From Escherichia coli (GTDB lineage Bacteria > Pseudomonadota > Gammaproteobacteria > Enterobacterales > Enterobacteriaceae), in assembly GCF_044647545.1 (NCBI RefSeq), contig NZ_CP172818.1: a stretch of DNA of 64,000 bases. One strand, 5' to 3'. The notes below the pieces were generated by a model. It worked only from the letters and a program-made list of their open reading frames with translations, was not told where the DNA came from and did not search any database. This document shows, piece after piece, positions 2,054 to 36,483 of the stretch (its first letter is position 1; every line of letters starts with the position of its first letter). The translations under genes and the position numbers were made by a program.

Positions 2054-3852
2054 TAGTAGACATCTCGCTGATAACGGCGCTCTACGCGCAGCTCACTTAA
2101 AAATTCATCCGCCGCTTCGGTGTCCATGCCACCAAATTCGGCAATCACTTCCAGAAGTGCCTGTTCAACGTCTTTCGCCATGCGATTAGCGTCGCCGCAG
2201 ACATAAATGTGGGCACCGTCATTGATCCAGCGCCACAGCTCTGCGCCCTGTTCGCGCAGTTTGTCTTGTACATAAACTTTTTCTTTTTGGTCGCGCGACC
2301 AGGCAAGATCGATACGCGTCAGCACGCCCTCTTTGACGTAGCGCTGCCATTCCACCTGGTAGAGGAAATCTTCCGTAAAGTGCGGGTTGCCAAAGAACAA
2401 CCAGTTTTTCCCCGGCGCTTCGTCGGCGGCGCGTTGCTGCATAAAGGCGCGGAACGGCGCGATGCCGGTGCCTGGGCCAATCATAATGACCGGCGTTTCC
2501 GGGTTCGCCGGCAGACGGAAGTTGTCGTTGTGCTCGATAAAGACGCGAACTTCGCCCTCCTCTTCGACACGGTCAGCCAGGAAGCTGGATGCACCGCCCG
2601 CGCGAGCACGGCCTTCGATGTCATAACGCACCACACCCACGGTCACGTGGACTTCGCTTTCCACTTCCGCCTGCGAAGAGGCGATAGAGTAAAGACGCGG
2701 CGTCAGTGGACGTAACAGGCCAACCAGCGCTTCTGCATCCAGCTGTGCTGGCGCGAAACGCACCATATCAACAATCGGCGTGGTGGCCGCATAGTGCTGC
2801 AACTTCGCTTTATCGCCCACTAACGGCAGCAAGGATTCGCTGCGCGTCAAGGTGGCGTAATTCTCAACGATGTTGGCCGTGTTGACGGTCAGTTCAAAAT
2901 GCCACTGTAGCGCCTCATTCAGCGGCAGGGTTTTGCCCTCAACGGTGACAGGTTCATCACCTTTCAGCCACAGCAGTTCGACAAGTTCTTTCACCAGTGC
3001 CGGATCGTTCTGATACCAGACGCCCAGCGCGTCACCCGGCTGGTAACGCAGGCCCGAGTCACCTAAGTCAATTTCGATATGGCGAACGTCTTTTTCAGAG
3101 TTACGCCCGGTAATTTTCTGGTTAACAGAGAGGCTCGCCACCAGCGGCGCGTCTTTGCTGTACGGGCTGGTGTGGATTTCATTTACCGCGCCAGTAGCGA
3201 CGGATTGCGAAGGTGCCGCGACAGGCGCACGCGATTTAAGCGCATCAACCACGCGGGCGCGCCACTCGCTGGCAGCGGCCTGATATTCAACGTCGGCATC
3301 GACACGGTCGAGCAGGCGTTCACCGCCCTGTTCCGCCAGCTTGCTGTCAAAATCTTTCCCGGACTGGCAGAAAAATTCATAAGAGCTATCGCCGAGGCTA
3401 AACACGGCAAATGCGGTGTTTTCCAGCTTCGGCGCTTTTTTGGAGAACAGGAACTTATGCAGCGCGACGGCTTCTTCCGGCGGTTCCCCTTCCCCTTGCG
3501 TTGACGTCACCACGATGAGCAGTTTTTCGCTGGCGATTTGTTTGAATTTATAGTCGCCCGCGTTCACCAGCTTAACGTTCAGTTTTGCCGCCAATAAATC
3601 ATCGCGTAATGCTTCAGCAACCCGGCGCGCATTGCCGGTTTGCGAGGCGGAGATAATAGTTATACCCGGCATTTCTGCGGCGGGCGCTGGCGTCGCTGCA
3701 AGCGCAGCAGGCTGCTGGTTGAGCACGCCCCAGAAATAGCCAGAAACCCAGGCAAGCTGGGTAGGAGTTAAATCGGTCGTGGCCGCCTGAAGGCGTGCCA
3801 GTTGCTCCGGGTTCAACGGAAGCAACGCGGAAGGTGGGACCTGTGTCGTCAT
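2053..3852 (-). CDS. cysJ: sulfite reductase flavoprotein alpha subunit
   Basis: 599-aa ORF with flavodoxin-like and FAD/NADPH-binding regions; immediately upstream of cysI on the same strand. Confidence 0.95.
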
Positions 3853-4167
3853 GCGTCGTTATGTTCCAGTAAGCAAAGCTGTTTCTGCGCCCTGTCAGCG
3901 CCCATAAAACAGAAGAGAAGGTAAGGTTAACGGGGTGAACGGTGTGGATTAAAGACGGGATAGCGATAACTAATAACCAAATCGACTAACCTGTTTTAGC
4001 AATAGTCTTTAACAACAAAATAGATTAACCAACCCAATGAAAAACAAATGAATATTGCCCATCAATAAGATAAATCAGCGATTTTGCGCAACAAAGTCGT
4101 TTTAGATAATGCGAAAAAACAGCCTTTCCGGTACTCTACGGCGGTTTTATCGTCATGTAGAGAAATT

Positions 4168-4533
4168 ATGATGTCCACCACGTTATTTAAAGATTTCACC
4201 TTCGAAGCCGCTCACCGCTTGCCGCACGTCCCACAAGGGCATAAATGTGGTCGCCTGCACGGGCATTCCTTTATGGTGCGACTGGAAATTACCGGGGAAG
4301 TCGATCCGCATACGGGCTGGATTATCGATTTCGCTGAACTGAAAGCGGCGTTTAAGCCAACCTACGAGCGCCTCGATCACCATTATCTCAATGATATTCC
4401 AGGTCTGGAAAACCCAACCAGCGAGGTTTTAGCAAAATGGATTTGGGATCAGGTTAAACCGGTTGTTCCGCTGTTAAGTGCGGTTATGGTGAAAGAAACC
4501 TGCACCGCAGGTTGCATCTATCGCGGCGAATGA
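4168..4533 (+). CDS. queD: 6-carboxy-5,6,7,8-tetrahydropterin synthase
   Basis: ORF track 4084-4533; the known protein begins [18 protein letters not shown] at the ATG at 4168 (121 aa); the CxxxHGH motif is present. Confidence 0.85.
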
Positions 4534-4610
4534 TAAGAGTGTGTCGGCGGTCAATTTCCCTTAAGTAACGCTATGTTAGGGTGTTGTGTTCTGGATATTT
4601 GGGGCATGAC

Positions 4611-5882
4611 ATGGAAGACGACTGCGACATTATTATTATTGGTGCCGGTATTGCAGGCACCGCTTGCGCGTTACGCTGCGCGCGAGCGGGTTTATCCGTT
4701 TTGTTACTGGAACGCGCTGAAATCCCCGGCAGCAAAAATCTTTCCGGCGGGCGTTTATATACCCAGGCGCTCGCGGAACTCCTCCCACAATTTCATCTGA
4801 CCGCGCCTCTTGAACGACGCATCACTCACGAAAGCCTTTCCCTGTTAACGCCGGATGGCGCAACGACGTTTTCCAGCTTACAGCCCGGCGGTGAATCCTG
4901 GAGTGTATTACGTGCACGGTTCGATCCGTGGCTGGTTGCCGAAGCCGAAAAAGAAGGTGTCGAATGCATCCCCGGTGCGACGGTGGATGCGTTGTATGAA
5001 GAAAACGGCAGGGTGTGTGGTGTCATTTGTGGTGACGATATTCTCCGCGCCTGTTATGTGGTGCTGGCAGAAGGTGCCAACAGCGTCCTGGCTGAACGTC
5101 ACGGGTTAGTGACTCGTCCTGCTGGCGAAGCGATGGCGTTGGGGATCAAAGAAGTGCTGTCGCTGGAAACATCCGCTATTGAAGAACGTTTTCATCTGGA
5201 GAATAACGAAGGCGCAGCGTTGCTGTTCAGCGGCGGGATCTGTGATGACTTACCCGGCGGCGCATTTCTTTATACTAATCAACAAACGCTCTCGTTAGGG
5301 ATTGTTTGCCCGCTCTCTTCCCTTACGCAAAGTCGTGTTCCGGCAAGCGAGCTGCTGGCTCGCTTTAAAACGCATCCGGCAGTGCGCCCGCTTATCAAAA
5401 ACACGGAATCACTGGAGTATGGTGCGCATCTGGTGCCAGAAGGTGGCTTGCACAGTATGCCGGTGCAATACGCCGGTAACGGCTGGCTGCTGCTGGGCGA
5501 TGCGTTGCGCAGTTGCGTCAATACCGGAATTTCCGTGCGCGGCATGGATATGGCGCTAACTGGCGCGCAGGCGGCGGCACAAACGCTGATAAGCGCCTGC
5601 CAGCACCGCGAGCCGCAAAATCTGTTTGCGCTTTATCATCACAACGTAGAGCGCAGCCTGCTGTGGGATGTTCTACAACGTTATCAGCATGTTCCGGCGC
5701 TTTTGCAACGCCCTGGCTGGTATCGGGCGTGGCCTGCGTTAATGCAGGATATTTCCCGCGATTTATGGGATCAGGGTGATAAACCTGTTCCACCGCTGCG
5801 CCAGTTATTCTGGCGTCATTTACGTCGTCACGGCCTGTGGCATCTGGCGGGCGATGTTATCAGGAGTCTGCGATGTCTGTAG
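4611..5882 (+). CDS. ygcN: FAD-dependent oxidoreductase, FixC-like electron-transfer flavoprotein-quinone oxidoreductase
   Basis: ORF track 4581-5882 (alternative start); ATG at 4611 gives MEDDCDIIIIGAGIAGTACA with a Rossmann GxGxxG FAD-binding N-terminus. Confidence 0.85.
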   Translation: MEDDCDIIIIGAGIAGTACALRCARAGLSVLLLERAEIPGSKNLSGGRLYTQALAELLPQFHLTAPLERRITHESLSLLTPDGATTFSSLQPGGESWSVLRARFDPWLVAEAEKEGVECIPGATVDALYEENGRVCGVICGDDILRACYVVLAEGANSVLAERHGLVTRPAGEAMALGIKEVLSLETSAIEERFHLENNEGAALLFSGGICDDLPGGAFLYTNQQTLSLGIVCPLSSLTQSRVPASELLARFKTHPAVRPLIKNTESLEYGAHLVPEGGLHSMPVQYAGNGWLLLGDALRSCVNTGISVRGMDMALTGAQAAAQTLISACQHREPQNLFALYHHNVERSLLWDVLQRYQHVPALLQRPGWYRAWPALMQDISRDLWDQGDKPVPPLRQLFWRHLRRHGLWHLAGDVIRSLRCL

Positions 5883-6871: not shown

Positions 6872-7732
6872 TTATTGGCAATCTGCGTGAATGTTTGTCA
6901 CCATTGCCTCCAGCACCACTTTCCAGTCATCAACCACGCCAACATCTGCCTGTGAAAATACCGCTGCGCTGGCGTCATGATTAATCGCCACCACAAACTT
7001 GCTATTGCATACGCCCGCCATTAACGCTGCTGCGCCAGAAGCGCCAACAACAATACACACCTCAGGTGCCAGCAGATGTCCGGAAATACCAATCACTTTT
7101 TCAGCATCAACGCCACCGTTCATCACTCGCGCCCGACTGTAGCCCACTTCGGCTCCCAGCTTTTCTGCCAGCATAGCGATTTCCTGGTTATCTGCCTCTC
7201 CGCCCTGCCCCACCACCAGCACCCGTCTGGCTTCAGCTAATGGGTCGCGGGTAACATTTTTCAGGTTTTCTAGGCTAACCAGCCAGTCGGGAAGCGCGCC
7301 GGGGACAATGTTCAGTTGCTGCATCCCAGAGGGCAACGTGGCGTTTTTATCTGCTCCCGCCTGACGCGCCAGCGAAAGGCATAGCGGGCGTTTGTCTGTT
7401 TGCAGCGTCGCCGTCAACGCATTTCCCCAGTGGGATTTGCGCACGCTTACGGTTGGAATATCTAACGAAGTCACCTGGCAGATGCTTGCACCATGTAAAC
7501 GCCAGGCCAGCCGGGTCGACAGTTCATCGCCAAACGTTCCCGGCGGAAAGAGAACAACGTCCGCAGGCGTTCGCTGCCACTGTTCCACCAACGCATCCAG
7601 CACCTGTTCCGCCACTACGGGCTGAGGTTCAATCTGCCAGTGCGCCAGGGTACAACCGCTGAAATCCTGCGCCGCCAGCCAGCTCGCTATTGCGGCATTC
7701 TCCTGATTTATTGTCACAATTGCGATATTCAT
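6872..7732 (-). CDS. ygcQ: electron transfer flavoprotein alpha subunit-like (FixB-like)
   Basis: ORF track 6872-7765; likely start at MNIAIVTINQENAAIASWL (286 aa). Confidence 0.8.
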   Translation of the reverse strand: MNIAIVTINQENAAIASWLAAQDFSGCTLAHWQIEPQPVVAEQVLDALVEQWQRTPADVVLFPPGTFGDELSTRLAWRLHGASICQVTSLDIPTVSVRKSHWGNALTATLQTDKRPLCLSLARQAGADKNATLPSGMQQLNIVPGALPDWLVSLENLKNVTRDPLAEARRVLVVGQGGEADNQEIAMLAEKLGAEVGYSRARVMNGGVDAEKVIGISGHLLAPEVCIVVGASGAAALMAGVCNSKFVVAINHDASAAVFSQADVGVVDDWKVVLEAMVTNIHADCQ

Positions 7733-8508
7733 GGCTGCATCCTTTGGCGTAAATAGTTCTGCCATAGCTTTTGCGCTTTTTCTGCTACCGTTTGCCCATC
7801 AATCAGCGTCGCTCCGCGTCGTTGCTCTGCTCTTGCCAGATGCAGACACTGCATCGCTGGCAATTCGACAGCAACAGTTTTACGGATAATTGCTGCTTTC
7901 CCCGCAGCCATTCGCTGGCGCATTCCCGGTACTGGCAAGGCCACTTCACCACACTGGCGCACGGCAATCACCGCAGGCAAGCGAACCCGGCAACAGCGCA
8001 GCCCGTTTTCAGTACGCTGTTCAAGGGTGATAAACGGCGCGTCGAGAGTAAAACGCTCCACCTGGGTGAAGCAGGGCCAGCCCAGCATTTCCGCCAGCAA
8101 AAATGGCGTTTGCCCATTCTGCCCTTCGCTGCTTTGGCAGCCGGTAATGATCAGATCCAGCGGATTCTGACGCTGCCATTCGGCAATATGGCGAGCGACA
8201 AATTCCGGCGCAAAGCGCAGATCTGCCACCGTCTCCAGCAATACAGCGTCCTCAAACCCAAGAGCCATGAGATAGCGCAGCCAGTGCAACGCCCGTTCAT
8301 CCCCCATGCTCAACGCGGTTAAAGACATCGGCGTACCGTTTTTTCTCTGCGCCAACAGCAGCGCGGCGGCAGCCTGTTCATCAGCACCGAGTAAACTTCG
8401 CAGTAGCGAAACATCTGGTCCAATATTACCCTGAGCCGCCGCCTGCCACTCTTTTTCCGCCAGCATTCCGGCATCCGGTTCGGCTTTAAACGCTAACAGA
8501 ATGTTCAT
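7729..8508 (-). CDS. ygcR: electron transfer flavoprotein beta subunit-like (FixA-like)
   Basis: ORF track 7729-8514; begins MNILLAFKAEPDAGM; overlaps the ygcQ start. Confidence 0.8.
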   Translation of the reverse strand: MNILLAFKAEPDAGMLAEKEWQAAAQGNIGPDVSLLRSLLGADEQAAAALLLAQRKNGTPMSLTALSMGDERALHWLRYLMALGFEDAVLLETVADLRFAPEFVARHIAEWQRQNPLDLIITGCQSSEGQNGQTPFLLAEMLGWPCFTQVERFTLDAPFITLEQRTENGLRCCRVRLPAVIAVRQCGEVALPVPGMRQRMAAGKAAIIRKTVAVELPAMQCLHLARAEQRRGATLIDGQTVAEKAQKLWQNYLRQRMQP

Positions 8509-25659: not shown

Positions 25660-26961
25660 CTATTTAACGCGCGAGAAAAGTACCATCGATTCCAGATGTC
25701 CCGTGTGTGGGAACATATCCAGCATCGCCAGTCGCGCAATGGTATATCCTGCTTTTAATAACGCTTCGCTATCCCGAGCCAGCGTTGCAGGGTTACAGGA
25801 TACATAAACTATACGAATAGGTTCCAGTTTTATAATTTGCTGCATAACACCTGCGGCACCTGCTCGCGCCGGGTCCAACAACACTTTATCGAAGCCGTTT
25901 TTCGCCCACGGCTGCTTTGTGACATCTTCTTCAAGATTTTCGTGATAAAACGTCACATTGTGTAAGCCATTAAGACGCGCATTCTGCTGGCCTTTTTCAA
26001 CCAGCGCCGGAACGCCTTCTACACCGACCACACTGGCAGCTTGTGTCGCCAATGGCAGTGTAAAGTTGCCCATACCGCAGAACAGATCCAGTACGCGATC
26101 TTCAGGTTGCACATCCAGCCATTCCAACGCACGCGCTACCATTTTTTGGTTCACACCCGCATTGACCTGAATAAAATCGCGCGGGCTAAAAGTTAAGCGC
26201 AACCCATTTGAGTCATACCAGGGCATCTCACCAGAGACGGTTTCGAGTATCTCACTATCGGGGGCGAGATACAGATCCAGTCCTTCAGAATGCGAAAAGC
26301 ATTCCAGTTTTTCGCGATCTGCCGAACTTAGCGGTGCGGTATGGCGCAAAATCATTAGCGTGCCGCTGGTTGCCTGTACCAGTTCAACATGACCAAGATG
26401 GCGCATAGCTTGTAAGCTGCCCAGGCATGCCCTGACTTTGGGCAGCAATGCTTCAAGTTGGGGCACTAAAATGGGGCATTGTTTAACGTCGACAATGTCA
26501 CTGGAGCCCGCTTTGCGAAACCCCATCTGAAGTTGCTGTGTTTTCGGTAAGTAGTTCAGACTTAAACGCGCGCGACGGCGATAGCCCCAGGGAACATCGG
26601 CGATCACTTCAGAGACTTCGTGTTTCATTAATCGGGCGAGTGCCGCACTTTTGCTTCGCTGCTGTAAATCCACACTGGCGTGTTGTTGCTGACAGCCGCC
26701 GCATACGCCAAAATGAGGACAGCGTGGCGTTTCGCGTTCCGGACTATCGCTTAACCGGCGTACGACTTTAGCGCGGGCATACTGTTTTTTATCTTCAGTA
26801 ACAGTAACTTCCGCGTTTTCCTGCGGCAATAATCCGGGGATAAATAATGTTTTGCCGTTATGTCGCGCCACACCCTGACCAAAAGAGTCGAGGTCGTTGA
26901 CTGAAACGGTTATGATCTGACGCGTCGTCGTGCGTCGTTTTGCAGAGTAGAATTGCGCCAT
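25660..26961 (-). CDS. rlmD: 23S rRNA (uracil1939-C5)-methyltransferase
   Basis: 433-aa ORF; TRAM N-terminus, Cys cluster ([11 protein letters not shown]), SAM-dependent methyltransferase C-terminus. Confidence 0.92.
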
Positions 26962-29774: not shown

Positions 29775-29848
29775 CGGACGTCTTGTCGAGTAGCAATCGG
29801 CTTTTTATGAAGCTGGTTTCAGACTGGTGACAAAGTGCCTGTGTTTAT

Positions 29849-29882
29849 GCCGGATGCGGCGTTAACGCCTTATCCTGCCTAC
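29849..29882. repeat. REP element downstream of barA
   Basis: gccggatgcggcgttaacgccttatcctgcctac matches the REP consensus. Confidence 0.7.
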
Positions 29883-30004
29883 AAAATCAATTAAATTCAA
29901 TGAATTAAAAAGTATGTTGGCCTGATACGTAGCGCAACAGGCAATTTTGCGTTTGGCATCAGTCTCAAACCGGCTCCTGACAGAGCCGGTTTTTGTTTTC
30001 AGTC

Positions 30005-31345
30005 TTAACGCACCATGCACGGGCGCTTGTTATCAAACGTCCAGCCAGGAATCAGGTACTGCATTCCCATCGCATCGTCACGCGCGCCAAGCCCGTGTTT
30101 CTGATACAGCTCGTGGGCTTTCATCACCTGATCCATATCGATTTCTACGCCCAATCCTGGTTTTTGCGGCACCTGTACCAGCCCGCCTTTGATCTCAAAC
30201 GGTTCTTTGGTCAGACGCTGATTGCCTTCCTGCCAGATCCAGTGCGTATCAATAGCAGTAATTTTACCCGGTGCAGCAGCGGCTACATGGGTAAACATCG
30301 CCAGGGAAATATCGAAGTGGTTGTTAGAGTGTGAACCCCAGGTCAGGCCAAATTCATGGCACATTTGCGCCACACGTACCGAACCTTGCATCGTCCAGAA
30401 ATGCGGATCCGCCAGCGGGATATCAACGGATTGCAGGGAGAGCGTATGGCCCATCTGCCGCCAGTCGGTGGCGATCATATTGGTTGCGGTCGGCAGGCCA
30501 GTCGCGCGACGGAACTCTGCCATCACTTCACGCCCGGAGAAACCTTGCTCCGCACCACACGGATCTTCTGCATAAGCCAGCGAACCTTTCAGGTATTTAC
30601 CAATTTTAATCGCTTCGTTCAGCGACCAGGCACCGTTAGGATCGAGGGTAATACGCGCCTGTGGGAAGCGTTGCGCCAGTGCCACAATAGATTCTGCTTC
30701 TTCTTCCCCGGCCAGTACACCGCCCTTCAGTTTGAAATCGTTGAAGCCATATTTTTCATATGCCGCTTCCGCCAGGCGCACCACCGCATCCGGCGTCATC
30801 GCTTCTTCGTGACGCAGGCGATACCAGTCACATTGATCATCCGGCTGGCTTTGATACGGCAGCGGTGTGGCTTTGCGATTACCGACGAAGAACAGATAAC
30901 CGAGCATTTCGACTTCGCTACGCTGTTGACCATCGCCCAGCAGCGATGCCACGTTAACCCCCAGATGCTGCCCCAGCAGATCCAGCATTGCCGCTTCTAT
31001 CCCGGTAACCACATGAATAGTGGTCCGCAGGTCAAATGTCTGCAAACCGCGCCCGCCGGCATCACGATCGGCAAATGTATTACGCACCAGCGTCAGAACG
31101 TTTTTGTATTCACCCAGCGTTTTACCCACCACCAGCGGAATCGCATCTTCCAGCGTTTTACGGATTTTCTCGCCGCCGGGAATTTCCCCTACCCCAGTGT
31201 GACCAGAATTATCTTTGATAATCACAATATTACGCGTGAAGAACGGTGCGTGTGCACCACTCAGATTCATCAGCATACTGTCATGGCCCGCCACCGGGAT
31301 GACCTGCATTTCAGTAACAACAGGCGTCGTAAATTGAGAACTCAT
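30005..31345 (-). CDS. gudD: glucarate dehydratase
   Basis: ORF track 30005-31369; known start [24 protein letters not shown] (446 aa); enolase-superfamily. Confidence 0.92.
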
Positions 31346-31365
31346 ATTTATGTCCTTTTTCAAAA

Positions 31366-32706
31366 TCAATGACGGCCGAAAACGGGACGTTTACGGTCAA
31401 AGGTCCAGCCGGGGATCAGGTACTGCATCGGGCCCGCGTCGTTACGCGCACCGCCAGGCAGACGTTTATAGGCCTCATGCGCCTTTTGTACCTGCTCCCA
31501 GTCCAGTTCCACGCCCAGACCGGGCGCATCAGGAACGGCAATTTTTCCATTTTTAATCTCCAGCGGATTTTTGGTCAGGCGACAATCGCCCTCCTGCCAA
31601 ATCCAGTGGGTATCGATAGCGGTAGGATTACCCGGTGCCGCCGCGCCCACATGGGTAAACATCGCCAGAGAGATATCAAAGTGGTTATTGGAATGGCAGC
31701 CCCAGGTCAGCCCCCAGTCGTCGCAAAGCTGCGCTACGCGGACTGCACCGGAAAGCGTCCAGAAGTGCGGGTCGGCAAGTGGAATATCTACCGCATTGAG
31801 CATCACCGCATGGCCCATTTCGCGCCAGTTGGTGGCGATCATATTAGTCGCGACGGGCAAGCCGGTCGCCCGCCGAAATTCCGCCATCACTTCACGTCCG
31901 GAGAAACCCTGTTCTGCGCCACACGGATCTTCGGCATAGGTGAGAACATCATTCAGCCCTTTGCACAGAGAAATAGCTTCATCAAGCAGCCATGCTCCGT
32001 TGGGATCAACGGTAATCCGCGCATCCGGGAAGCGTTTCTTCAATGCACGAACAGTGTCGATTTCTTGCTCGCCAGGTAACACTCCGCCCTTAAGTTTGAA
32101 ATCTTTAAAGCCATAGCGATCCTGTGAAGCTTCCGCCAGACGCACAACGGCTTCGCTGTTCATCGCTTTCTGATGCCGCAATTGATACCACTCATGGTTG
32201 CCCGGAGTATTTTCCAGATAAGGAAGATCGGTTTTGGTCCGATCACCGATATAAAACAGATAACCGAGGACGGTAATAGCATCGCGTTGCTTGCCTGGCC
32301 CTAACAGTTCGCAGACCGGAACATTCAGCGCCTGACCTAGCAGGTCAAGCAAGGCGGCTTCCAGCGCCGCCACGGCATTAACGCGCAATTCAAAAGTCCA
32401 GGCACCTTTGCCGAAGGTATCAAAATCGGCTGCCTGATTACCTTTATGCACCTGCTGAACCACTTTATTCAGTCGTGCGATCTCCTGGCCCAACACCATC
32501 GGAATAGCCTCGACCAGTGTTTGATAAATCACCTCTCCGCCCGGCGCTTCACCAATGCCGGTATGCCCGGCGTTATCGGTGAGTACCACAATATTGCGGG
32601 TGAAATATGCGTTATGTGCACCACCAATATTAAGCAACATGCTGTCATGTCCGGCGACCGGAATGACTTTCATATCAGTAATAACAGGACTGGATTGTGT
32701 CGTCAT
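31366..32706 (-). CDS. gudX: glucarate dehydratase-related protein (paralog of GudD)
   Basis: 446-aa ORF beginning [23 protein letters not shown]; colinear with gudD over its whole length. Confidence 0.92.
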
Positions 32707-32707
32707 C

Positions 32708-34060
32708 TTATTGCCCCGCGACAGGTTTCAGCTCAATACGCTTGATATCGCCCACCAGCACCAGGTAGCTGAGTACCGCGATTAAGGCATGAACACCAAC
32801 ATAAATCAGCGCCCCATTAAAGGAGCCAGTCGTGCCAACGATATAACCAATTGCGATTGGCGTGACGATGCCAGAAATGTTACCGAACATGTTGAACAGG
32901 CCACCGGAAAGACCGCTGATCTCTTTTGGCGCGGTATCTGCCATTACTGCCCAACCCAGCGCCCCGATGCCCTTACCGAAGAAGGCCAGCGCCATAAAGC
33001 CGATGATCATCCACTCAACGTTGACGTAGTTGCAGAACACCATCACCATCGACAGCAACATGCCCATTACGATCGGTGTTTTACGCGCAATGTTCAGCGA
33101 TCCCGTGCGGCGCATCAGCCAGTCGGAAATAATCCCACCCAGCACACCGCCGATAAAACCGCAAACCGCCGGAACGGAAGCCACAAAGCCCGCTTTCAGA
33201 ATCGACATCCCGCGTGCCTGCACCAGATAAACCGGGAACCAGGTAATAAAGAAGTAAGTCAGGGCGTTGATACAGTACTGACCGATATAAACGCCGATCA
33301 TCATCCGTGACCCGAGCAGCTGTTTGATCTGCCCCCACTTCACGCTGAACGGTACTTTAACTTTGGTGTTTTGCTGATCCATATTGATCAGCGCGCCACC
33401 CGCCGCGATGTACTCCAGCTCTTTCTGATTTACACCCGGATGTTGATTTGGCTCGTGGATGACTTTCAACCAGATAAAGCTGATGACAATGCCCAGACCG
33501 CCCATAAAGAAGAAGACGTGTGACCAGCCCACTTCATGCGTCAGCCAGCCCATAATCGGCGCGAAGATCACCGTTGCGAAGTATTGAGCGGAGTTAAAAA
33601 TCGACACCGCCGTTCCCCTTTCCTGCGCCGGAAACCAGGCCGCTACAATGCGACTGTTACCGGGGAAAGATGGCGCTTCAGCAAGCCCGACCAGGAAGCG
33701 CAGCGTAAACAGGGCAACGATAATGCCGAATCCACTAAAAATATCGACGAAGCCTTGCAGCAAGGTAAACATCGACCAGATAAAGATCGACCAGAAGTAG
33801 ACGCGTTTTGAACCAAAACGATCCAGCAACCAACCACCAGGGATCTGCCCGATAACATAAGCCCATGAGAAAGCAGAGAACACATAGCCCATTCCCACAG
33901 GATCAAGGCCGATATCTTTGGCCATTTCCGAACCGGCGATAGAGAGCGTAGCGCGGTCGCCGTAGTTGAAGGATGTGACGATAAACAACATCACCACTAT
34001 CCAGTAACGAGCATTCGTGCGTTTTTCCACACTGCTCGCAGCCTGACTTAAAGAACTCAT
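32708..34060 (-). CDS. gudP: glucarate/galactarate MFS transporter
   Basis: 450-aa hydrophobic ORF; first gene of the gudPXD operon. Confidence 0.9.
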
Positions 34061-34494
34061 TGTTGCACTCCTGAAAATTCGCGTTAGCCACGCTCACTCT
34101 GGACTGCGACATCGCCAGGAAATCAGAGGTGACGTAGGGTGTTTTTTGCCGTTTTTATAGGTCGTTCGCCGAATGCGGCGCGTGTTTATATCTGGCAATA
34201 GCAGTATAAAAAGCGCGCCATAGCGGCTCACCGTGCAACAACACAACATTAATGCGTTCAATGAGGCCCGATTTTGGCATTAGCCCTGGACGGTGGAATC
34301 CACTTCACGGAAATGAAAACAAGAACAAGAAAGGAAGGGTTAAAACGAAGAAATAAAGAAGAGTATGAAATGGATCGCTTGACTCCAGGCAAACGCCAGT
34401 AAAAATCCGCACTATGAAGCAGTTTTTACTGGCATTTGCCTGAAAAGATTCGATTCAGCACTGCTAAAACGGCATTTACCGCTCGCTGAACATA

Positions 34495-36073: not shown

Positions 36074-36118
36074 AAAGCAACCTCAATAAGAAAAACTGCC
36101 GCGAAGGATAGCAGGAAT

Positions 36119-36483
36119 AAAAAAAGGGAGCACTGTATTCACAGTGCTCCCGGTTCGTTTCGCAGCATTCCAGCTACTTTTGTTGCTCCCTGCTCATCCT
36201 TGACAACTTTTCCTCTGGCCTTGCGGCCAATCGTTCATCCTGAACTATTGCTTCCTGCTCACACCACCCCGATGTGATACTTCATCCTGAAGTGTCCCTG
36301 GCCTTCCTGACCCACCGAATCATCCTGACCGGTTCTCATTCTCCATCCTGGAGGTGTCCTTTAACGCGTCCTGCGTCATCCTCTTCGCTTCATCCAGAAG
36401 CCTTTCCCTGAAACACCATCCTGGTGTGTCCTTCAGAAGTGTCATCATCCTGATGTTCACTTCGTTGTCTGACTCCCTGTCGA
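36119..36483 (-). ncRNA. csrB: CsrB small RNA (CsrA-sequestering)
   Basis: On the + strand, at least 6 perfect CATCCTG (CAGGAUG in the transcript) plus several variant GGA motifs within about 360 nt; terminator gggagcactgtgaatacagtgctccc + U-run at the 3' end (36119-36151). Confidence 0.9.

Follow-up and report, generated by a model that had tools for sequence, protein, structure and literature searches.

The tandem paralogs gudX and gudD of Escherichia coli: an old duplication and a possible partner subunit of glucarate dehydratase

D-glucarate dehydratase of E. coli (GlucD, encoded by gudD) is represented in the PDB by 1EC7, 1EC8, 1EC9 and 1ECQ, and its activity is established through the product and analogue complexes 1EC8 and 1EC9. 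A second E. coli protein, GlucDRP (encoded by gudX, b2788 in strain K-12), is represented by 4IL0 and by chains C and D of 4GYP. The latter, deposited as 'heterotetrameric complex of GlucD and GlucDRP from E. coli K-12', includes chains of both sequences. According to what Hubbard et al. reportedly described in 1998, GlucDRP is about 65% identical to GlucD and its activity is strongly impaired. Other structures of the family come from Pseudomonas putida (GlucD, 1BQG) and Actinobacillus succinogenes (3N6H, 3N6J and 4G8T). Low-activity paralogs are found elsewhere in the enolase superfamily, for example in the low-efficiency D-mannonate dehydratase subgroup, where the catalytic residues are kept and the substrate of the name is turned over poorly. 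We know of no report that such low-efficiency paralogs are encoded beside, or form a complex with, a high-activity paralog.

The pair of genes described here is the already known E. coli gudX and gudD, for which both protein structures have been solved and a heterocomplex has been deposited in the PDB. Both genes were already annotated in E. coli in the 1990s, and they offer little for discovery in themselves. The remaining value lies in the role of GudX, which is unpublished.

In the window, a 64,000-nt stretch of E. coli DNA, gudD (D-glucarate dehydratase) occupies positions 30005–31345 and gudX (glucarate dehydratase-related protein GlucDRP) positions 31366–32706. Both ORFs lie on the minus strand, consist of 446 codons plus a stop, and carry these gene names in the RefSeq annotation. 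They close the gudP-gudX-gudD operon, whose first gene, gudP (32708–34060, minus strand), encodes an MFS glucarate/galactarate transporter (TIGR00893, 538.6 bits; Pfam MFS_1; RefSeq gudP). Of 5426 complete E. coli genomes, 5403 have the operon and 5408 have at least 80% of the interval 29800–34300. Several E. coli chromosomes are 100% identical over this interval and are annotated there with gudP, gudX and gudD. The order of genes between positions 26000 and 37000 is rlmD, barA (+), gudD, gudX, gudP (all minus strand), yqcA, truC, yqcC, CsrB and syd. The CsrB small RNA is located at 36116–36475 on the minus strand, between yqcC and syd (Rfam RF00018, 382.9 bits). The Rfam search gave no match inside the gud genes.

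The gudP stop codon ends 1 nt ahead of the gudX ATG, an arrangement consistent with translational coupling at this junction. The spacer between gudX and gudD is 20 nt long (31346–31365, minus strand) and contains a Shine-Dalgarno-like AAGGA at 31357–31353, 7 nt before the gudD ATG. This ATG, at 31345, is the start used in RefSeq and in the 446-aa form of PDB 1EC7; the alternative in the list of ORFs is a TTG at 31369, which would give 454 aa. GudX would be co-transcribed, and probably co-translated, with GudD. By position, the intergenic region upstream of gudP (34061–34494) presumably holds the promoter and regulatory sequences of the operon. No match to a minus-strand sigma-70 consensus was found upstream of gudP, as is expected of a promoter that depends on an activator. 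A G+C-rich hairpin with a 10-pair stem (29967–29992) begins 12 nt past the gudD stop codon and is likely the end of the operon transcript; in the terminator scan its T-run was stronger on the plus strand. The spacer between barA and gudD also includes a REP-like palindromic element, gccggatgcggcgttaacgccttatcctgcctac, at about 29848–29885.

A preliminary description made from the window had presented gudD and gudX as adjacent, colinear 446-aa paralogs of the enolase superfamily, and we confirmed its coordinates, the lengths and every peptide that it quotes. Both proteins contain the MR_MLE_C domain (PF13378) with scores of 163.7 bits for GudD and 173.5 bits for GudX against a cut-off of 29.4, which places them in the MR/MLE type of the superfamily, and GudX additionally matches PF02746 (MR_MLE_N). 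Superposition of the AlphaFold model of GudX on structures of the GlucD family gives TM scores of 0.91–0.95. The description had named pairwise alignment as a check, with low identity as the outcome that would speak against it. BLASTP aligns the two proteins colinearly with 284 identities in 448 positions (63%), 78% positives, 571 bits and E = 0, with five gap positions in two small indels, and a global alignment gives 284 of 443 (64%). The similarity of GudD and GudX is far beyond chance.

The same description took the duplication to be old, and the DNA agrees. Nucleotide identity between the genes is 65.6%, and the Nei-Gojobori estimates are a saturated dS of about 1.7 and a dN of 0.29. The long identical peptide blocks, one of which extends over 27 residues, could be taken as signs that the genes duplicated recently or that gene conversion between the copies is still going on, and a chimeric gene in Pantoea stewartii (see below) shows that two such copies can recombine. 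However, codons differ even inside the 27-residue block, the same codon is used at only 132 of 267 identical residues other than Met and Trp, and in the most conserved window at 12 of 28; the longest exact run of DNA common to the two genes is 20 nt. Moreover, the identity of X to D within a genome is 61–66% in all nine genomes compared and never exceeds the values between genomes, and we found no gene-conversion tract between gudX and gudD. Recent duplication or conversion has practically no chance of being the explanation, and for E. coli we regard it as refuted by the differing codons, the 20-nt longest run and the saturated dS.

We built a bootstrapped neighbour-joining tree from the X and D proteins of nine genomes and three PDB sequences. 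The X proteins and the D proteins, drawn from several bacterial orders, each form a clade with 100% bootstrap support and are thus reciprocally monophyletic, and the single-copy P. putida GlucD joins the D clade at 95%. The two clades span the Enterobacterales, Pasteurellaceae, Orbaceae, Tolumonas, Entomomonas and Neisseria. Given these separate clades, and the within-genome identity of 61–66% everywhere, the split must predate these lineages. GudX orthologs with 84–100% identity occur across the Enterobacterales, and with PDB 3N6H as the query X-type proteins were also identified in Pasteurellaceae, Orbaceae, Entomomonas and a Neisseria. The X-type proteins are slightly more divergent than the D-type proteins, with a mean identity of 78% compared with 83%.

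Against distant outgroups, the monophyly of X and D together receives 23% bootstrap support. These outgroups were taken from a library of representatives at 50% identity, which does not tell X and D apart and served for outgroups alone. At the 23 positions that discriminate the clades, the closest outgroup has the D state at eight, the X state at three and neither at twelve. Because the rooting is weak and the polarity mixed, we do not claim that GudX is overall the derived copy.

Only one of the two copies was said in the preliminary description to be the bona fide glucarate dehydratase, and the profile scores bear this out. The NCBIfam model TIGR03247 is the glucarate dehydratase equivalog, with a curated whole-protein cut-off of 828.7 bits. 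GudD passes it with 899.2 bits, whereas GudX fails with 750.7 bits and is therefore not to be filed as a glucarate dehydratase equivalog. The same division is seen in other genera: D-type partners in Pantoea, Gallibacterium and Entomomonas score 867–892 bits, and X-type proteins from six other genera 703–746 bits. RefSeq likewise names the gudD product 'glucarate dehydratase' and that of gudX merely 'enolase C-terminal domain-like protein'. GudD matches PDB 1EC7 over its full length (residues 1–446, 1030.7 bits, E = 0). GudX is about 98% identical to 4IL0 and to chains C and D of 4GYP ('Glucarate dehydratase-related protein'), with about eight residues different. It is the same gene as in K-12, likewise situated between gudP and gudD, and the differences are allelic alone. 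Its place in the GlucDRP orthogroup is supported by the X-type loop signature (G28, E296 and C337 plus the loop), by clustering with 4IL0 and by its tandem position directly upstream of a D-type gene. The role of this second copy had been called less clear, a judgment that still applies: the PDB name is simply 'glucarate dehydratase-related protein', and a literature search on GudX/GlucDRP found nothing substantive.

The A. succinogenes structures fall on both sides of the division. 3N6H reproduces the X-type loop letter for letter and belongs to the X clade, as an X-type entry together with 3N6J, and 4G8T is placed in the D clade among other sequences of Pasteurellaceae type. Structures of the same two-paralog system are thus available from another order as well. 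The PDB names ignore the X/D split, as 4G8T is titled 'glucarate dehydratase related protein' though it is D-type in the tree.

Comparison of active-site residues, also proposed in the preliminary description, showed that the catalytic residues are kept in both proteins. Sixteen catalytic or ligand positions are invariant in ten X-type and eleven D-type sequences (N27, H32, T103, Y150, K205, K207, D235, N237, E260, N289, D313, H339, N341, D366, H368 and R422). Gulick et al. (2000) reportedly assigned Asp235, Glu260 and Asn289 as metal ligands and Asp313 and Asn341 as further parts of the machinery. The machinery of the glucarate dehydratase subgroup is present in GudD and GudX alike (Lys205-x-Lys207, Asn237, His339, Asp313, Asp235/Glu260/Asn289 and Asn341). 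K205, K207, N237 and H339 are the residues listed for 1ECQ in the Catalytic Site Atlas (PMC4922564, Table 3). Several of the catalytic residues have been lost in distant full-length relatives with 38–46% identity (P0240, P0243 and P0255), for example K207, replaced by V, H or N, and H339, replaced by Q or N.

GudX has the fold, the length and all catalytic residues in common with the GlucD enzymes of E. coli and P. putida. It is 63–65% identical to them, fails the equivalog cut-off and carries 23 clade-fixed differences. These 23 discriminating positions cluster at residues 81–116, a segment about 99% conserved within the X clade. In the 100s loop, an 18-residue stretch of the D-type proteins corresponds to a 17-residue stretch in the X-type, the latter preceded by a 2-residue insertion; a +2/−2 pair of indels in the 90s–100s loop distinguishes GudX from the GlucD enzymes. 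Among the fixed differences from D to X, S29G lies in the 20s loop, D294N and Q297E follow the Asn289 ligand and S338C adjoins His339; M319L, S322A and N439R are fixed as well. The AlphaFold model of GudX has a pLDDT of 84 and its lowest confidence at residues 93–105, as would be expected for a mobile lid. PDB entries 3PWG and 3PWI are the GlucD mutants S29G.P34A and P34A. As these changes are GudD-to-GudX substitutions, the loops have already been probed by others.

We looked at the gene order in eight genomic contexts (Pantoea, Erwinia, Enterobacter, Buttiauxella, Gallibacterium, Gilliamella, Entomomonas and Neisseria). An MFS transporter, an X-type gene and a D-type gene lie on one strand in all eight, and garD, garL, garR, garK and a CdaR-like regulator are often found alongside the pair. 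The spacer between X and D is 10–47 nt in seven of these eight other genera. One genome per GTDB species was also scanned for DNA encoding a 16-residue X-specific motif, which yielded at least 120 loci. The arrangement was assessed, at the level of the locus, in the 92 species genomes among the matches listed that have at least 400 nt after the X gene. A D-type gene is directly downstream of X in 88 of these 92, with a median gap of about 24 nt. Among the matches listed, the tandem occurs in several families of Enterobacterales, in Pasteurellaceae and Orbaceae, in Tolumonas and in Neisseria perflava.

The other four of these 92 genomes comprise one with the D gene near but divergent (Acerihabitans), one with a single X/D chimeric gene (Pantoea stewartii) and two with a solo X-type gene at the level of the locus (Kushneria and Paludibacterium). 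In Acerihabitans arboris (L018), the D-type gene at about 3650–4978 (−) and the X-type gene at 6895–8238 (+) form divergent units; the transporter precedes X, and garD adjoins D. For the X-type gene of Kushneria pakistanensis (L049:5891–7231) no D-type gene was found within 2.5 kb downstream, and for that of Paludibacterium yongneupense (L052:1141–2472) none within 1.1 kb downstream. Next to the Kushneria gene are TRAP and TTT transporter genes and a gene of the NAD-dependent epimerase/SDR family.

Pantoea stewartii subsp. stewartii CCUG 26359 has one GlucD-family gene (L023:4089–5423) where other Pantoea have two. Its product is X-type to about residue 275 (80–98% identical to Pantoea GudX) and D-type thereafter (84–96% identical to Pantoea GudD), and scores 764 bits with TIGR03247. 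The crossover falls within the 27-residue block common to both paralogs. The ORF is intact and is flanked by a transporter and garL, garR and garK. The gene looks like a product of unequal recombination between tandem copies. In Leclercia adecarboxylata NCTC13032 (L088:5716–6922), the X-type gene was matched by tblastn as two overlapping pieces, which suggests a frameshift or a sequencing error.

Both gudX and gudD are under purifying selection, and GudX is not decaying. Among five E. coli alleles dN/dS is 0.02–0.08 for gudX and 0.02–0.11 for gudD, and between genera it is 0.03–0.06 for either gene. One could imagine GudX as a redundant copy of GudD, weakly active, serving as a back-up and on its way to being lost, a notion encouraged by its score below the equivalog cut-off and by the slightly greater divergence of the X-type proteins (78% compared with 83%). 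However, its dN/dS resembles that of gudD, the 446-aa gene is intact in about 5400 E. coli genomes, the X clade has been kept since before several orders diverged, and its catalytic residues are invariant whereas the three distant relatives have lost some of theirs. We consider a back-up of this kind very improbable. Decay of gudX into a pseudogene is effectively refuted by the low dN/dS and the invariant catalytic residues. Taken with the clade-specific loop and the adjacency of X and D in 88 of the 92 genomes among the matches listed, these two observations argue that GudX is a functional, co-evolving partner and not a relic.

In sum, gudX and gudD are ancient tandem paralogs of the glucarate dehydratase subgroup, distal in gudP-gudX-gudD. 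GudD is a Mg2+-dependent D-glucarate/L-idarate dehydratase that forms 5-dehydro-4-deoxy-D-glucarate. GudX keeps the whole catalytic apparatus, with its metal ligands, Lys-x-Lys motif and His-Asp dyad, and bears remodelled capping loops that are nearly invariant across the X clade. GudX is most likely a partner subunit of GudD in a GudX2GudD2 heterotetramer within the hexarate pathway, and not a spare copy; we assign this reading a probability of about 0.55. It is the best-supported reading because the genes are coupled in an operon, are adjacent almost universally and are under equal purifying selection, and because the heterotetramer has been solved (4GYP). A literature search found no paper for this entry. 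The analysis shows the identity of the genes, their paralogy and its age, purifying selection, the kept catalytic residues, an almost universal order of X before D, and that a heterotetramer crystal exists; the heteromer as the form at work in the cell, and the contribution that GudX makes to it, are inferred.

Some observations count against a partner subunit. Crystals of GudD as a homo-oligomer, with no GudX present, are known (1EC7 and others), and GudX also crystallises alone with eight chains (4IL0). The heteromer is therefore not obligatory in vitro. The strict retention of every catalytic residue exceeds the needs of a purely structural subunit, and the solo X-type genes of Kushneria and Paludibacterium (at locus level) and the divergent arrangement in Acerihabitans are also contrary to it. 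Some of the same evidence would suit an independent homo-oligomeric enzyme for a different acid sugar, such as another stereoisomer of a hexarate or diacid, brought in by GudP or formed within the pathway, with the changed specificity encoded in the altered capping loops. Purifying selection is strong, and none of the catalytic and metal residues varies. The fixed differences are found in the 20s and 100s capping loops and beside His339, which are the usual determinants of specificity in the enolase superfamily. That GudX crystallises alone, and that Kushneria (beside its SDR/epimerase-family gene and TRAP/TTT transporters) and Paludibacterium have solo X-type genes, also fits such an enzyme. 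However, X lies directly before D, about 24 nt away, in 88 of 92 genomes among the matches listed, and in the contexts looked up no extra pathway gene travels with X, its neighbors being known glucarate/galactarate genes alone. A heterotetramer with GudD has been solved (4GYP), the literature search found no such substrate, and we know of no separate acid-sugar substrate of GudX. We consider a separate enzyme less likely than a partner subunit, but a live rival to it.

A stronger form of the partner-subunit reading is that, in E. coli and in most Gammaproteobacteria with gudP-X-D, glucarate dehydratase works physiologically as the GudX2GudD2 heterotetramer rather than as the long-studied GudD homotetramer. 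This we can offer only tentatively, as a possibility to which we give somewhat less than even odds. If it is correct, GudX would be an enzyme-like subunit fixed long ago, with an invariant capping loop that adjusts activity, stability or the range of substrates. The natural chimera of P. stewartii, and the X-type genes that stand alone in Kushneria and Paludibacterium, would then be exceptions from which something could be learned.

Within E. coli, the gudXD allele of the window is a minority type, with 96–97% DNA identity to most E. coli and a dS of about 0.14; it is at least 99% identical in 177 of 5422 records. In strain GN05505, gudD is close to that of the window (dS 0.036) and gudX is far (dS 0.138), which places a recombination breakpoint in or between the two genes. 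The chromosome NZ_AP022098.1, otherwise 100% identical to the window, has 37 bp of gudD duplicated in tandem near codon 280 (about 30460–30504 in the window); RefSeq flags its gudD as frameshifted, and gudX is intact. Such a strain would be a natural gudD knock-out. The same 37-bp difference in length was seen in the gud region of strain 4973 (NZ_CP103468.1) by genome comparison.

Rare long gene calls join pieces of GudX and GudD (P0001, P0003, P0004, P0005 and P0008), for example GudX 1–443 with GudD 1–228. The E. coli call P0008, which consists of GudX 1–229 and GudD 92–446, is found on 23 contigs. The joined calls are variants with a frameshift or deletion, or else assembly artefacts.

ORFs are also present on the plus strand, antisense to gudD and gudX, at 30356–31372 (338 aa) and 31369–32079 (236 aa), and are probably spurious. 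Two shorter antisense ORFs, at 30222–30575 and 31571–31939, have near-identical C-termini because they mirror the paralogy of gudX and gudD on the sense strand.
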